A DNA stretch of 32,000 bases, taken from NCBI RefSeq assembly GCF_003944705.1, contig NZ_RWIS01000002.1:462243-494242 (forward strand). The letters are read 5' to 3'. This document shows, one piece after another, positions 4,239-30,475 of this stretch (position 1 is its first letter; each line of letters starts with the position of its first letter). The translations under genes were made by a program, and so were the position numbers. The notes beneath the pieces were generated by a model that saw nothing but the letters and a program-made list of their open reading frames with translations, was not told where the DNA came from and searched no databases. Source of the DNA: Hymenobacter metallilatus (GTDB lineage Bacteria; Bacteroidota; Bacteroidia; Cytophagales; Hymenobacteraceae).

Positions 4239-4353
4239 AGAACGTCATGCTGAGCTTGCCGAAGCATCTCTACCGCTTCGTGCTCAAGAGTGAGTTAGCA
4301 AGAGTGAGTTAGCCAGAGGTAGAGATGCTTCGGCAAGCTCAGCATGACGTTCT
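4239..4353. repeat. complete V1 nested-palindrome element (36-nt arms, 43-nt spacer)
   Basis: Left arm 4239-4274 is agaacgtcatgctgagcttgccgaagcatctctacc. Right arm 4318-4353 is its exact reverse complement. The spacer holds a tandem 14-mer, aagagtgagttagc x2, at 4286-4313. Confidence 0.9.
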
Positions 4354-4375
4354 TTTTCCCATAACATCAGCACGC

Positions 4376-4407
4376 GAGATGCTTCGGCAAGCTGAGCATG
4401 ACGTTCT
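4376..4407. repeat. solo V1 right arm
   Basis: gagatgcttcggcaagctgagcatgacgttct has one mismatch to the consensus right arm. It lies 19 nt upstream of the argG ATG. Confidence 0.85.
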
Positions 4408-4425
4408 CATAATCTTCAGCACTCC

Positions 4426-6588: not shown

Positions 6589-6686
6589 AGAGCGTCATGC
6601 TGAGCTTGCCGAAGCATCTCTACCGCTTCGCAAGACCATTGATTACCCTCGGTAGAGATGCTTCGGCAAGCTCAGCATGACGTTCT
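6589..6686. repeat. complete V1 nested-palindrome element (36-nt arms, 26-nt spacer)
   Basis: Left arm 6589-6624 has one a>g change. Right arm 6651-6686 matches consensus. The element starts 3 nt after the argC stop. Confidence 0.9.
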
Positions 6687-9455: not shown

Positions 9456-9821
9456 ATGAGTACTTGCAAGTTTCGCTTACTCATACCTACGCTAGCGCTG
9501 ATATTTTTGAATGCTGGCTGTAGGCAAGAAGCAAAATTTGATAAGGACAAGTGGTGCTCTATGGGTGATATAGGAAGCTTCCCGTATCGTGAGCAAATGG
9601 TCGATGATTTGGTTACGCATCATCAACTTAAGGGTCTCACTTACCATCAGCTTCTTGATTCACTGGGTGAGCCGTCAAACTATGGCGAGTCTGACGGCAC
9701 ACTTCGGTATCTAATCATGGAGGATTTTGAATCAGATATTGACCCGGTACATGGCAAAACGCTTGACCTGACATTGGGGCTTGATTCTGTTGTAACTGCT
9801 TACAAAGTCACCAAGTGGTAA
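9456..9821 (+). CDS. low-GC small lipoprotein-like protein (possibly a BamE/SmpA_OmlA-like fold)
   Basis: 121 aa. The ATG is 2 nt after the carA stop. Signal peptide ends ...LIFLNAGC. A 60-nt sample I hand-counted is about 40% G+C, against about 60% in carB. Confidence 0.6.
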   Translation: MSTCKFRLLIPTLALIFLNAGCRQEAKFDKDKWCSMGDIGSFPYREQMVDDLVTHHQLKGLTYHQLLDSLGEPSNYGESDGTLRYLIMEDFESDIDPVHGKTLDLTLGLDSVVTAYKVTKW

Positions 9822-9828
9822 GCACCCC

Positions 9829-9874
9829 AGAACGTCATGCTAAGTTTGCCGAATCATCTCTACCATTTCGTTGG
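9829..9874. repeat. degenerate V1 left arm (half of a split palindrome)
   Basis: agaacgtcatgctAagTttgccgaaTcatctctaccAtttcgttgg. All four differences from consensus are G/C to A/T. Its partner is at 10291-10335. Confidence 0.85.
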
Positions 9875-9915
9875 CGAATAAGATTGTAATACTCAAACGT
9901 ACTAGTATACATACC

Positions 9916-10305
9916 ATGCAGTTGAATGGAAAATCATTAAAGAAATGGCTTTTGCTTTTAGTGGCAGGTATAGCCTTTTATTTCTCTTTTGATTTCCTAG
10001 ACGACTTCTTAGATAAGCAGATGTTGGGTGACCACCCAGAAGTCATTCTTGCGGCCAAGTATGGTGCCAAGACTTCTCCGAGAATACTTAGCCACACGGG
10101 AGAAATATTTTCTGAGGAATACAAAATGAATACGCTGGATTCCAAGCAAGACTCGCTTGAACTTGATATCAAGTTAGAAGGCAAGAAGGCAACCGCCATT
10201 ATTAATACGCGTGCAGTGAAGCAAGTATCTGGTATATGGAACATCTACCGTAGCGACACCACATTCACTGAACAGGCACCACAGCTTGGCCCAACGAAGC
10301 GGTAG
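9916..10305 (+). CDS. low-GC hypothetical membrane-anchored protein
   Basis: The track ORF starts at a TTG at 9871, inside the repeat. The first ATG, at 9916 (MQLNGKSLKKWLLLLVAGIAFYFSF...), gives 129 aa with one N-terminal TM helix. The TAG stop lies within the V1 right arm (ggTAGag). No family recognised. Confidence 0.5.
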   Translation: MQLNGKSLKKWLLLLVAGIAFYFSFDFLDDFLDKQMLGDHPEVILAAKYGAKTSPRILSHTGEIFSEEYKMNTLDSKQDSLELDIKLEGKKATAIINTRAVKQVSGIWNIYRSDTTFTEQAPQLGPTKR

Positions 10306-10335
10306 AGATGCTTCGGCAAGCTCAGCATGACGTTC
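10291..10335. repeat. V1 right arm (half of a split palindrome)
   Basis: ccaacgaagcggtagagatgcttcggcaagctcagcatgacgttc. Consensus sequence, complementary to 9829-9874 except at the four degenerate positions. Confidence 0.9.
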
Positions 10336-10379
10336 AGATAAATCCTTTGCCTACGTTCTTTTTGAACATAACCCCCAGA

Positions 10380-13646: not shown

Positions 13647-13691
13647 AGAACGTCATGCTGAGCTTGTCGAAGCATCTCTACCGCTTCGTTG
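13647..13691. repeat. V1 left arm carrying a private T variant (outer half of a split palindrome)
   Basis: agaacgtcatgctgagcttgTcgaagcatctctaccgcttcgttg. Its exact partner is at 14644-14684. Confidence 0.9.
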
Positions 13692-13720
13692 TTCGGCATC
13701 GGCGCTGATTGGACAAAGCA

Positions 13721-13823
13721 AGAACGTCATGCTGAGCGAAGCTGAAGCATCTCTACTGATAGTAACTCCTCTCGTGAGGACGACCCCGGTAGAGATGCTT
13801 CAACAAGCTCAGCATGACGTTCT
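13721..13823. repeat. complete variant V1 element nested inside the split palindrome
   Basis: The left arm, 13721-13756, has loop variant gagcGAAGCtga, which contains GCGAAGC at 13736-13742. The right arm, 13788-13823, is ggtagagatgcttcaacaagctcagcatgacgttct. The arms pair except at the mini-loop. Confidence 0.85.
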
Positions 13824-13854
13824 GATTTTCGGCTGTTCTGCGTAACGTAGCCGC

Positions 13855-14145
13855 ATGTACGTCTACATCCTGACTAACCCGACCCAAACTGTGCTCTACA
13901 TCGGCGTCACCAACGACTTGGCCCGCCGCCTCTATGAGCACAGCCAGGGCCGCGGTGACGCGGGCAAGTTCACCGGACGGTACCAAGCGGATTTGCTGGT
14001 GTACTTCGAGCAGTGCCCGGATGCTACGCAGGCTATTGCGCGGGAAAAGCAACTGAAAGGCTGGACGCGGCAGAAGAAGGACGCGCTGATTGCGGCGTTT
14101 AATCCGACGTGGCAGGCTATTGATTTGCAGACGTGGGCGGGGTAA
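13855..14145 (+). CDS. small stand-alone GIY-YIG (URI-domain) nuclease family protein
   Basis: 96 aa: MYVYILTNPTQTVLYIGVTNDLARRLYEH...REKQLKGW. The YILTN...LYIGVTN...R..EH...E pattern is typical of short COG2827-type GIY-YIG proteins. G+C is host-like. Confidence 0.85.
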   Translation: MYVYILTNPTQTVLYIGVTNDLARRLYEHSQGRGDAGKFTGRYQADLLVYFEQCPDATQAIAREKQLKGWTRQKKDALIAAFNPTWQAIDLQTWAG

Positions 14146-14156
14146 ACTAAATACTT

Positions 14157-14642
14157 ATGAATAAGCTATCTGAGCTAAATGACCTTTGGAAAAAGGCAAA
14201 GATTAGAACAGTTGACACTGCAACTGAACAGCAGGTTAGTGAGTTTGAAGCAACTCATAATCTGATTATTCCTCATGATTTACGAGGTTATTTCGTAGCT
14301 GTGAACGGTACCGACAGGTTGCCGGATAATGAGTTTTATACTTTCTGTACGCTTGAGCAATTTCAACCAATCACCAAAGTTTTAGATGCTTGGAAAAACG
14401 GTATACCGAGGCATAGCGACGTGCTTGAGAAAATAGGCAGCCCTCAAAATTGCTTTGTATTTGCGGATTATAGCATCTACCTCTTTGCTTACGCTATCAG
14501 GCTGTACCCTACAGAATCTGCTCAAAATGAAGTTTATGCAATCTGCGGTGGAGAATACAGAATTATAGCCAAGTCGTTTTCCGAATTCATCGACCTGTAT
14601 CTGCAGCAGGCGGATGAACTTACCTTTTGTCTCATCGCCTGA
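14157..14642 (+). CDS. SMI1/KNR4 (SUKH-1 superfamily) protein, immunity-protein-like, low GC
   Basis: 161 aa. The N-terminal segment (...QVSEFEATHNLIIPHDLRGYFVAVNG) and the ...FADY...SFSEFIDLYL segments resemble the SUKH pattern. A 60-nt sample I hand-counted is about 35% G+C. Confidence 0.65.
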   Translation: MNKLSELNDLWKKAKIRTVDTATEQQVSEFEATHNLIIPHDLRGYFVAVNGTDRLPDNEFYTFCTLEQFQPITKVLDAWKNGIPRHSDVLEKIGSPQNCFVFADYSIYLFAYAIRLYPTESAQNEVYAICGGEYRIIAKSFSEFIDLYLQQADELTFCLIA

Positions 14643-14643
14643 G

Positions 14644-14684
14644 CAACGAAGCGGTAGAGATGCTTCGACAAGCTCAGCATGACG
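14644..14684. repeat. V1 right arm carrying the matching private A variant (outer half of a split palindrome)
   Basis: caacgaagcggtagagatgcttcgAcaagctcagcatgacg is the exact reverse complement of 13651-13691. The terminal ttct reappears at 14710-14713 after a 25-nt insertion. Confidence 0.9.
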
Positions 14685-14733
14685 GCCTGACGGCCTTTTC
14701 CGTCTGCCGTTCTGAAATACCGTAGAACACCCC

Positions 14734-19800: not shown

Positions 19801-20042
19801 AGGGTATGAGGGTGTGGGGGTGTGGGGGTGTGGGGGTAGGAGTTATTAGCCCGTCATTCCGAGCTTGCCGAGGAATCTCGCGTGCTGACGTTGCACTGGT
19901 GACTGTTACGCAGAATGCAGCGGAGCGGAGTGATGCATCTCGCGTGCAGTGCTGATCCACCTCATTGCAACATTAGCCCGTCATTCCTCGGCAAGCTCGG
20001 AATGACGGGCTAATAACTCCTACCCCCGCACCCTCATACCCT
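19801..20042. repeat. composite V2 nested-palindrome element with octamer expansion
   Basis: The left arm, 19801-19876, includes aggagttattagcccgtcattccgagcttgccgaggaat. The right arm, 19983-20042, is its reverse complement and extends to acccccgcaccctcataccct. The left arm has extra gtgtgggg units at 19810-19836. Confidence 0.9.
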
Positions 20043-22091: not shown

Positions 22092-22910
22092 ATGCAACAC
22101 CTCCGCGAAGCCGCCGACTACCTCCAGCACCGCCTCAACAACTTTCAGCCCGAAGCCGGTGTTATTCTGGGAACCGGCCTGGGGGCTCTGGCCAAGGAGG
22201 TAGAAGTGCAGCACCGCTTTTCCTACGCCGATATTCCGCATTTTCCGGTGTCCACGGTGGAAAGTCACGCCGGCGAGCTGCTGGCGGGGACCTTAGCCGG
22301 TAAGCGGGTGCTGGTGATGCGCGGCCGGTTTCACTACTACGAGGGCTACACCATGGAGCAGGTGGTGTTTCCGGTGCGCGTAATGAAGCTGCTGGGCATT
22401 CGTAACCTGTTCGTGAGCAATGCCAGCGGCGGCCTCAACCCCGATTACGATTACTCCGACCTGATGCTGCTAGAAGACCACATCAACCTGCAGCCCGGCA
22501 ACCCGCTCATTGGCCCCAACCTGGACGAGCTGGGTTTGCGCTTCCCCGATATGATGGAGCCTTACAGCCTGGGCCTGCTACAGCTGGCCGAGGAAGCTGC
22601 CCGGGAGCTGGAGCTCACGCAGTATCTGCGCCGGGGCGTGTATGCCAGCCTGCCCGGCCCCATGCTGGAAACGCCCGCCGAGTACCGCTACCTGCGTACC
22701 ATTGGGGCCGATGCCGTGGGCATGAGCACCGTACCCGAGGTAATTGCCGCCGTGCATATGGGGTTACCGGTGCTGGCCGTATCCGTCATCACGGACCTGT
22801 GTGCGCCTGGCAAGCTCAAAAAAGTAAACATTGCCGACATCCTGCGCACGGCTGCCGTAGCCGAGCCCCGTCTCACGGCGTTGCTGCGCCGGGTACTGGA
22901 AAAGCTATAA
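22092..22910 (+). CDS. purine nucleoside phosphorylase (PNP family, trimeric type)
   Basis: 272 aa, with GRFHYYEGY, SNASGGLNP and VGMSTVPEVI. Confidence 0.9.
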   Translation: MQHLREAADYLQHRLNNFQPEAGVILGTGLGALAKEVEVQHRFSYADIPHFPVSTVESHAGELLAGTLAGKRVLVMRGRFHYYEGYTMEQVVFPVRVMKLLGIRNLFVSNASGGLNPDYDYSDLMLLEDHINLQPGNPLIGPNLDELGLRFPDMMEPYSLGLLQLAEEAARELELTQYLRRGVYASLPGPMLETPAEYRYLRTIGADAVGMSTVPEVIAAVHMGLPVLAVSVITDLCAPGKLKKVNIADILRTAAVAEPRLTALLRRVLEKL

Positions 22911-30394: not shown

Positions 30395-30475
30395 CTGTCA
30401 TTCCGAGCGAAGCGAGGAATCTGGGTTATACATCAGGAGTTAGACCCAGATTCCTCGCTTCGCTCGGAATGACAG
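30395..30475. repeat. V3 nested-palindrome element (perfect 32-bp arms, 17-nt loop) between convergent genes
   Basis: ctgtcattccgagcgaagcgaggaatctgggt (30395-30426) and acccagattcctcgcttcgctcggaatgacag (30444-30475). GCGAAGC lies at 30407-30413. Confidence 0.9.

Follow-up and report, generated by a model that had tools for sequence, protein, structure and literature searches.

The carB-argF' junction of Hymenobacter metallilatus raises a question that is easily put: how do two arms that are exact reverse complements of each other come to stand on either side of two genes inside an arginine operon? The locus lies in a stretch of 32,000 nucleotides (contig NZ_RWIS01000002.1, positions 462,243 to 494,242 of the forward strand; the whole stretch is called the window), in which the operon order is a GNAT gene, argG, argC, argD, carA, open reading frames (ORFs) for 121 and 129 amino acids, carB, a GIY-YIG gene, a SUKH gene and the OTCase-family gene argF'. 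Positions 13651-13694 and 14641-14684 are inverted repeats of 44 nt that match at 98%; their 41-nt cores (13651-13691 and 14644-14684) are perfect reverse complements and are separated by 952 bp. An initial annotation, made from the letters alone, had placed the cores at these coordinates and had read the DNA between them as one block captured at the tip of a palindrome; its observation was largely correct, its interpretation half right. The locus is probably the gene for an Ssn nuclease lying among inverted copies of its cognate hairpin repeats, together with a hypervariable slot for passenger genes, with the arms acting as recombination sites.

The nuclease gene and its repeats

The gene at the centre of this reading, ssn (13855-14145, plus strand), encodes a protein of 96 amino acids (RSK36311.1) in which the Pfam GIY-YIG domain (PF01541, E 2e-17) covers residues 1-74 and no further domain is present; SsnA of Neisseria meningitidis is a single-domain GIY-YIG protein of 94 amino acids (Chenal et al., 2025; PMC11893778). 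Using the ssnA region of N. gonorrhoeae as a proxy for the meningococcal protein, we found 44% identity over 85 amino acids (pairwise E 2e-22) and, by tblastn in a 7.3-Gb database, a link to gonococcal ssnA at E 1e-11; the published homology criterion for the family is E < 1e-10 (PMC11893778). The motifs VYIL, LYIGVT and REKQLK are aligned between the two, and Y4, Y15 and E64 of the window protein fall on the residues that were mutated in meningococcal SsnA (Y6, Y17 and E64). The PDB returned only weak UPF0213 matches (1zg2 and 1ywl). By its sequence, the window protein is an Ssn-family nuclease; by analogy, its activity and cut site are expected to be those of SsnA, which binds the NTS hairpin as single-stranded DNA (ssDNA) only, cuts a few nucleotides upstream in a strand-specific manner and is inactive on RNA (PMC11893778).

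The surroundings of the gene resemble those of the same family, although the published search pattern does not match its arms (see below). In Neisseria, NTS copies flank ssnA (NTS-ssnA-NTS), and thousands of Ssn homologs (cd10448), widespread across bacterial phyla, are flanked by related motifs in the layout SRM-ssn-SRM (PMC11893778). Inverted CGTCAT hairpins stand on both sides of the homologs that we located in Rhizobium, Aeromonas, Neisseria and Novosphingobium; those on a Spirosoma and a Planktothrix plasmid have TGTCAT...ATCT hairpins in the same places. The Hymenobacter locus is like this system in having a single-domain GIY-YIG enzyme of ~95 amino acids, CGTCAT...ATC hairpin repeats on both sides of its gene, the same repeats dispersed in intergenic regions, and a nuclease paralog and repeat variant that co-vary. 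The initial annotation knew of no such system in Bacteroidota; the architecture had already been published (Chenal et al., Nat Commun 2025).

Each Hymenobacter arm is 45 nt long and consists of AGAA, an SRM-like unit and a 14-nt extension; the unit runs from CGTC and AT through a variable stem of 3 bp and a GAG...CGA loop to the complement of the stem, AT and C. Two facing arms form hairpins of ~100 bp that are dispersed in the genome. The window has 10 matches to each of two 12-13-mers of the repeat, where 0.03-0.27 are expected, and 10 sites for a relaxed SRM pattern, where shuffled sequences have 0. On both sides of ssn the arm retains GTC before the stem, a stem that starts with AT and C right after the stem, that is, the features reported as most important by Chenal et al. 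(2025; PMC11893778). The 3-bp stem covaries between arm families (GCT/AGC, TCC/GGA, CCC/GGG, TCT/AGA). The outer left arm of the junction (13647-13691, plus strand) reads AGAA + CGTCAT-GCT-[GAGCTTGTCGA]-AGC-ATCTC + extension CTACCGCTTCGTTG; its SRM-like core (13651-13677) matches the relaxed pattern. The outer right arm (14644-14684) has its core 5' to 3' on the minus strand, and an orthologous right arm stands immediately upstream of argF' in many species.

For comparison we collected argF' with 10 kb on either side from 80 Hymenobacter species, and 120 metagenome loci whose sole selection criterion was that they contain an arm; L-numbers denote loci. In four of the species, a second ssn gene that is 71-75% identical lies a few kb downstream of argF' (L048, 13222-13781; L051, 12282-12880; L074, 14986-15585; L079, 12402-12995) and has a complete hairpin on either side, from an arm family of its own (GTCATGCAGAGCGCAGCGAAGCATCTCGC, GTCATGCAGAGCGCAGCGAAGCATCTCGCG), which suggests that nuclease and repeat form matched pairs inside one genus.

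Two other repeat systems invite comparison. The CGTC-tagged repetitive extragenic palindromes (REPs), reported without a dedicated transposase, share the CGTC/TGTC tag, the AT first stem pairs, the short tail and the prevalence of dimers; they differ in having stems of 8-9 bp and loops of 4-5 nt (Di Nocera et al., 2013; PMC3733652). That study did not cover Hymenobacter, and it preceded the connection with Ssn. REPIN-RAYT systems (Bertels and Rainey, 2011; Nunvar, 2010) also form intergenic inverted doublet hairpins without target duplications, have a low-copy cognate nuclease gene flanked by repeats and are inherited largely vertically; the REPIN abstracts that a literature search returned mention no gene-sized cargo between the arms. 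The Hymenobacter repeats behave as such doublets: 115 of the 118 arm pairs in the metagenome loci are short, and the ends of complete elements show no duplications. [quoted passage not shown] A literature search for GIY-YIG in connection with Bacteroidetes repeats, REPIN/RAYT, transposable elements of the miniature inverted-repeat type (MITEs) or YhbQ returned nothing relevant.

The interior of the junction in relatives

Inward of the outer left arm, a 29-nt spacer (13692-13720) leads to a complete nested hairpin (13721-13823; ssDNA fold of -37 kcal/mol, z = -10.9), which is followed by ssn and then by the SUKH passenger gene (14157-14642, plus strand). The latter encodes a protein of 161 amino acids of the SMI1/KNR4 (SUKH-1) family (PF09346, E 1.5e-8; 35.7 bits against a gathering cut-off of 25.4), and its stop codon ends 1 nt short of the right arm. 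The initial annotation had described the nested hairpin and had placed a GIY-YIG and a SUKH gene between the arms, inside the operon between carB and argF'; the fold and Pfam agree with it. Its estimate of host-like G+C holds for the nuclease gene (59.1% vs 59.5% for the host), while the SUKH gene has 41.4%, not ~35%. The proteins encoded by the GIY-YIG and SUKH genes, argF' and the carA-carB cargo match RSK36309-RSK36313 and P0121 exactly. As in many arm pairs, the middle segments of the nested hairpin are mismatched (GAAGCT on the left, TTGTT type on the right); its 30-nt loop contains a mini-hairpin, and its right arm is of the GAAGCC type in the H. piscis locus (L053). Both the mismatches and the change of type speak for recombination among arms. 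The hairpin is collinear with the one that precedes ssn in L033, L017, L026, L027, L031, L035 and L076.

The outer end of the right arm (14685-14713, minus strand) carries a 25-nt insertion (14685-14709) that splits CGTC from the terminal AGAA/TTCT; it stands between ...GCATGACG and the terminal TTCT, as the initial annotation had seen, and a perfect tandem of two copies of GACGGCCT (14681-14696) marks its junction with the arm. Diverged orthologues of this insertion are present in L053, in Solirubrum puertoriconensis (L211) and in a metagenome contig (L214). By analogy with SsnA, the insertion lies at the outer position where known Ssn chemistry would put the cut, which is suggestive. The inserted sequence also makes a small GACGG...CCGTC hairpin.

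Are the two outer arms halves of one palindrome? The initial annotation said so on the strength of a T/A substitution that it considered private to them and diagnostic. It is shared by the nested hairpin, whose right arm (13789-13820, ...cttcAAcaag...) also has the A, and so is not private. Nor is it diagnostic; the annotation had itself allowed that a common variant would say little, and TTGTC is the commonest arm variant in Hymenobacter (30 of 116 arms in the 80 arg loci; 91 of 208 in the metagenome loci, scanned with the spacer fixed at 5 nt). The conclusion stands on other grounds, namely the intact hairpins at the same junction in relatives, described next, and an odd outer-end insertion in L211 that is present as a mirror image on both arms and is much better evidence than T/A for partner arms. 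These comparisons support the reading of the outer arms as two halves of a pair, the cargo occupying the place of the loop.

Across the 80 species, carB and argF' overlap at one extreme and are 8.5 kb apart at the other. In seven species (L015, L048, L074, L024, L058, L010, L059) the junction measures 135-158 bp and contains one intact hairpin of ~100 bp, an empty site of the kind that the initial annotation had named as support for insertion at the centre; the T/A form occurs on both arms in L015 and L048 and a near variant in L074. About ten species have a hairpin, the GIY-YIG gene and a lone right arm (left, right, ssn, right, or '+ - ssn -'), collinear with the window at 73-77%; they have no outer left arm, and the 29-nt spacer is missing from this layout. 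The remaining species have other small ORFs in the junction. The states are scattered on the carB/argF' tree, and sister species differ, a sign of turnover.

The closest relatives are the most informative. From carB to the ssn stop, the 29-nt spacer included, the window aligns collinearly with L053, L211 and L214 at 86-88% identity, and it does so once more from the right arm's inner end into argF'; these four are also the only loci in which the outer left arm is seen, at the same position in each. The slot between the ssn stop and the inner end of the right arm holds three unrelated cargos in these four loci: the SUKH gene in the window (495 bp), an extra right arm and an unrelated ORF in L053 (462 bp), and an ORF for 92 amino acids in L211 and L214 (~320 bp). 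L033 shares the hairpin, the GIY-YIG gene, the SUKH gene and the right arm at 73% identity and is without the outer left arm. From the comparisons with L033, L053, L211 and L214 it follows that the 952 bp were assembled in steps; on these alignments, the interior is a mosaic and not a single insertion.

A single insertion at the centre, in which a loop-targeting mechanism split an intact ~90-bp palindrome once at its tip with a block of 952 bp, would account for the seven species whose junction has an intact hairpin and for hairpins nested within hairpin loops (window, L053, L071); it would also fit the bimodal arm spacing and the constant breakpoints described below, and the homology at the gcpE-HAD site, which ends at the inner end of the left arm in three species. 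We nevertheless regard it as unlikely, because the parts of the interior differ in age and distribution (hairpin and ssn in ~10 species at 73-77%, SUKH in L033 alone besides the window), the closest relatives have different slots, only four loci show the outer left arm, the T/A marker is uninformative, and no known loop-cutting enzyme is encoded among the ~35 window ORFs scanned.

There are precedents for dispersed palindromes split at or near the centre: IS1397 and ISKpn1 insert into the loop of REP palindromic units, and IS1111-family elements into REPs or attC, in each case carrying their own transposase. The cargo here differs in having none.

Four metagenome-assembled genomes labelled Janthinobacterium lividum (L041, L046, L052, L071) contain Hymenobacter-type arg loci with arms and an argF' that is 89-91% identical; these bins are probably mislabelled or contaminated.

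Split arm pairs and ssn modules at other sites

The window contains a second split pair (9829-10336), missed by the initial annotation, at the carA-carB junction. Its left arm (9829-9874) differs from its partner (10291-10336) by five GC-to-AT changes, and the 416 bp between them contain most of a cargo ORF (9916-10305; 129 amino acids, 43% G+C) whose TAG stop lies inside the right arm and which has 31-43% homologs in the carA-carB junction of ~25 species. The homologs upstream of carB are usually without arms and have ~50% G+C. Other split pairs with cargo, for which the annotation had suggested a search, are found more widely. Measured from each left arm to the right arm that follows it, arm spacing in the 80 loci and the window is bimodal: 46 pairs have loops of up to 110 nt, and 26 pairs are 300-1200 bp apart; cargo in the long pairs is mostly 39-48% G+C. 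Wherever both arms are full length, the break falls between ...CTTCGTTG on the left and CAACGAAG... on the right. We rejected an origin from two separate hairpins that flanked an older gene and then each lost the inner arm, because an identical paired deletion would be needed 26 times. In the metagenome loci, two of the three long pairs are on contigs that also bear carA. Gene-sized cargo occurs between the arms of 26 of 72 pairs in arg junctions and 3 of 118 elsewhere (Fisher p = 5e-10); therefore, cargo-bearing pairs are concentrated in the arg operon. To our knowledge, gene-sized cargo between REPIN arms has never been reported.

The cargo falls into 82 sequence clusters, several of which are present in both the carA-carB and the carB-argF' junctions. 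Pfam and NCBIfam recognize SUKH, Imm50 (weakly), NlpE-like and DUF3997 proteins among the cargo ORFs, the rest being orphans; PADLOC, applied to ten cargo proteins, found nothing except two weak GIY-YIG matches. The left arm is nearly always the first feature after the upstream gene, with cargo before it only once. The window SUKH family numbers only 21 proteins, and one relative lies after carB. Because no toxin gene adjoins the window SUKH gene, an immunity function for its product is only inferred. A 41% relative in L207 (1-3474) is part of a same-strand array with DUF6572, Barstar and two SMI1/KNR4 genes, in which we detected no arms; this array looks like a typical orphan-immunity island.

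Could the hairpins instead act in RNA, as intercistronic terminators, stabilizers or RNase III processing stems of the arg operon, with arm complementarity kept up by the need of the transcript to pair and the genes between them incidental? The genes on either side of them are co-transcribed, a T run is often found at their end, all low-GC cargo clusters are on the operon strand, the stems covary between species, and arm complementarity is equally high in long (0.865) and short (0.878) pairs. However, the sequence itself is conserved genus-wide and its CGTCAT...ATC core across phyla, the repeats co-vary with the paralog of an ssDNA nuclease, Rfam at gathering thresholds finds no family in the whole window, and SsnA does not act on RNA (PMC11893778). 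As an alternative we consider this very improbable, although a role in RNA can coexist with arms that serve Ssn and recombination.

The window has further repeats of this kind. An intact hairpin lies between argC and argD (6592-6686; -45 kcal/mol, z = -13.5), and a second one (4239-4352) separates the GNAT gene from argG, with an additional partial right arm (4375-4408) behind it; the whole feature spans 4239-4408. This lone right arm, 22 nt after the hairpin (4353-4408), gives an order of '+ - -', that is, the '+ - ssn -' layout with nothing in between, and may be what is left of an ssn module that was lost. SRM-like repeats of other families, which have an ATTCC/GGAAT stem, are found at 19840-20020 (CGTCATTCCGAGCTTGCCGAGGAATCT), a large nested palindrome flanked by GTGGGG repeats, and at 30396-30474 (TGTCATTCCGAGCGAAGCGAGGAATCT), a simple doublet. 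Directly after carA, an ORF for 121 amino acids (9456-9821; 44% G+C) has homologs in only 3 of the 80 species, and the one in L007 has a lipoprotein-like signal peptide; this ORF is probably another passenger gene. The longest carB ORF begins at an ATG (10308) inside the right arm, and its first carB domain starts at residue 29; likewise, the annotated start of the HAD gene in L215, MLRQAQHDV, is arm sequence. Gene callers probably extend carB into the repeat.

The ssn gene itself also recurs within arms. In the best-conserved module, ssn lies 15-40 nt after a right arm (whole or reduced to its last ~10 nt) and 6-20 nt before another right arm. Proteins 93-94% identical to that of the window are encoded at three or four genomic sites, each in an arm-bounded module: in the carA-carB junction of H. 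aerilatus, in Hymenobacter sp. B81 beside mgtE, and in H. edaphi and a related genome in the interval from gcpE to a HAD gene. A second hypervariable slot occupies this gcpE-HAD interval, beginning where the left arm has its inner end (L215, 1330-2139; L216, 1116-2138; L217, 1031-2500). H. edaphi has a DUF7668 gene and ssn there, the related genome has other ORFs and ssn, and H. gummosus keeps the left arm and has four other ORFs, including a YoeB toxin gene; homology among the three species stops exactly at the inner end of the left arm. To tell transposition of a unit from insertion into a loop, we sought an empty gcpE-HAD site free of arms; H. gummosus keeps the left arm with other cargo, and in H. 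sedentarius the neighborhood differs. Taken together, the data show that junctions recur at arm ends and that the ssn module relocates.

Relocation could mean that arms, ssn and passengers transpose together as one unit; Ssn would then serve as a single-strand transposase, in the manner of TnpA of IS200/IS605, and the short hairpins would be gene-less derivatives comparable to REPINs. The layout is that of an insertion sequence (IS), as Chenal et al. (PMC11893778) also remark, and conservation of the elements begins at AGAA, just 5' of CGTC, where Ssn reportedly cuts. No direct repeats (target-site duplications) flank the 35 complete elements that we inspected, as in IS200/IS605; for the same reason a DDE-type MITE or transposon with terminal inverted repeats (TIRs) is not indicated. 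Units of the form '+ ORF ssn -' with long-variant arms that match at 98-100% occur in L055, L074, L041 and L034, and near-identical modules are found in the carA-carB, carB-argF', mgtE-adjacent and gcpE-HAD contexts. To that extent, arm-bounded modules at several sites lend some support to the suggestion in the initial annotation of a TIR-bounded mobile unit. Against an autonomous element, there are only one or two ssn copies per 20-kb locus, the exact window protein was found on a single contig, that of H. metallilatus, and both ssn genes in the 120 metagenome loci adjoin carA. Of two inverted arms, a given strand presents only one in the orientation that can be cleaved, and hence excision through a pair of cuts in that strand does not follow; the best-conserved module ('- ssn -') has direct, not inverted, arms; and the interior cargo varies between sites. 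We therefore give autonomous transposition of this kind little credence.

Arms as proposed sites of exchange

The reading that we prefer, an ssn gene among its cognate repeats with a slot in which genes are exchanged, can be stated as a sequence of steps. When the DNA becomes single-stranded (during replication, transcription or transformation), Ssn would bind the small CGTCAT stem-loop and nick the DNA a few nucleotides 5' of it, at the outer boundary of the repeat. Such nicks, together with 40-45 nt of near-identical flanking sequence, would turn the arms into portable recombination sites, and the sequence between two arms, or from ssn to an arm, could then be exchanged, converted or moved, either within the genome or from incoming DNA. 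Recombination, we infer, is the route of cargo turnover; cargo may have entered by homologous exchange between arms, by insertion into a loop or by IS-like transposition. A precedent for exchange is found in the Neisseria intergenic mosaic or minimal mobile elements, that is, variable genes flanked by dRS3/NTS; these also lie between conserved flanks and repeat arms, differ in repeat geometry, and have been proposed to be exchanged by homologous recombination after transformation (discussed in PMC11893778).

Several observations weigh against this interpretation. The published SRM pattern, HGTCWYN(0-2)YYVSBRHN(0-5)WNVSBRGN(0-2)RNCYNB, matches no Hymenobacter arm (its one match in the window, at 22263, is unrelated), and the SRM-like unit departs from the known system in its 5-bp stem and its GAG...CGA loop of 11-22 nt. 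In a lone arm, the SRM-like stem-loop folds no better than in shuffled sequences, and the minimum-energy fold uses the extension. Many junction cargo ORFs have no detectable arm nearby. Known Ssn chemistry also fails to explain the junction at the tip, because the cargo abuts the inner ends of the arms, ~45 nt from the expected cut, and the sharp breakpoints may merely mark the end of conserved sequence. Finally, SsnA in Neisseria does not promote exchange; it lowers the integration of NTS-bearing DNA (PMC11893778).

The Ssn/SRM system is already known; what is new in Hymenobacter, and what sets it apart, is the placement of the SRM-like unit within long (45-nt) arms that pair into ~100-bp doublets, the position of the locus in the arginine operon, a slot prone to swapping small low-GC ORFs, and the presence of the module at several sites. 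A bolder proposal, which we regard as doubtful, is that SRM arms and Ssn together are a platform for gene capture, which would place small foreign ORFs without promoters, some of them resembling immunity genes, next to the inner end of a hairpin arm, within operons that ensure that they are transcribed, and would let them be swapped between arms, loci and species.

Integron cassettes and the recombinase-associated immunity-gene arrays (rAID) of Bacteroidales likewise contain small, promoterless, co-oriented foreign ORFs, some of them immunity-like, that are separated by imperfect palindromes. The Hymenobacter locus differs in that its separators are half-palindromes or absent and its insertion points are different; an integron is not indicated, as no integrase or tyrosine recombinase was found among the ~35 window ORFs scanned. 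If the proposal of gene capture were true, an integron-like function would have arisen from REP-like repeats, with a single-strand nuclease in place of a recombinase, and Ssn would have a role beyond restricting transformation.

Chenal et al. left open both the role of Ssn outside Neisseria and whether NTS-ssnA-NTS is a domesticated mobile element (PMC11893778). With its multi-site ssn module, arm-bracketed cargo and swapping slot, Hymenobacter is a natural dataset for both questions. If the arms and the nuclease drive the turnover of cargo, REP-like repeats would be sites of gene exchange, and orphan immunity-like genes would have a route into core operons; otherwise, the locus is still a well-defined recombination hot spot within an essential biosynthetic operon.

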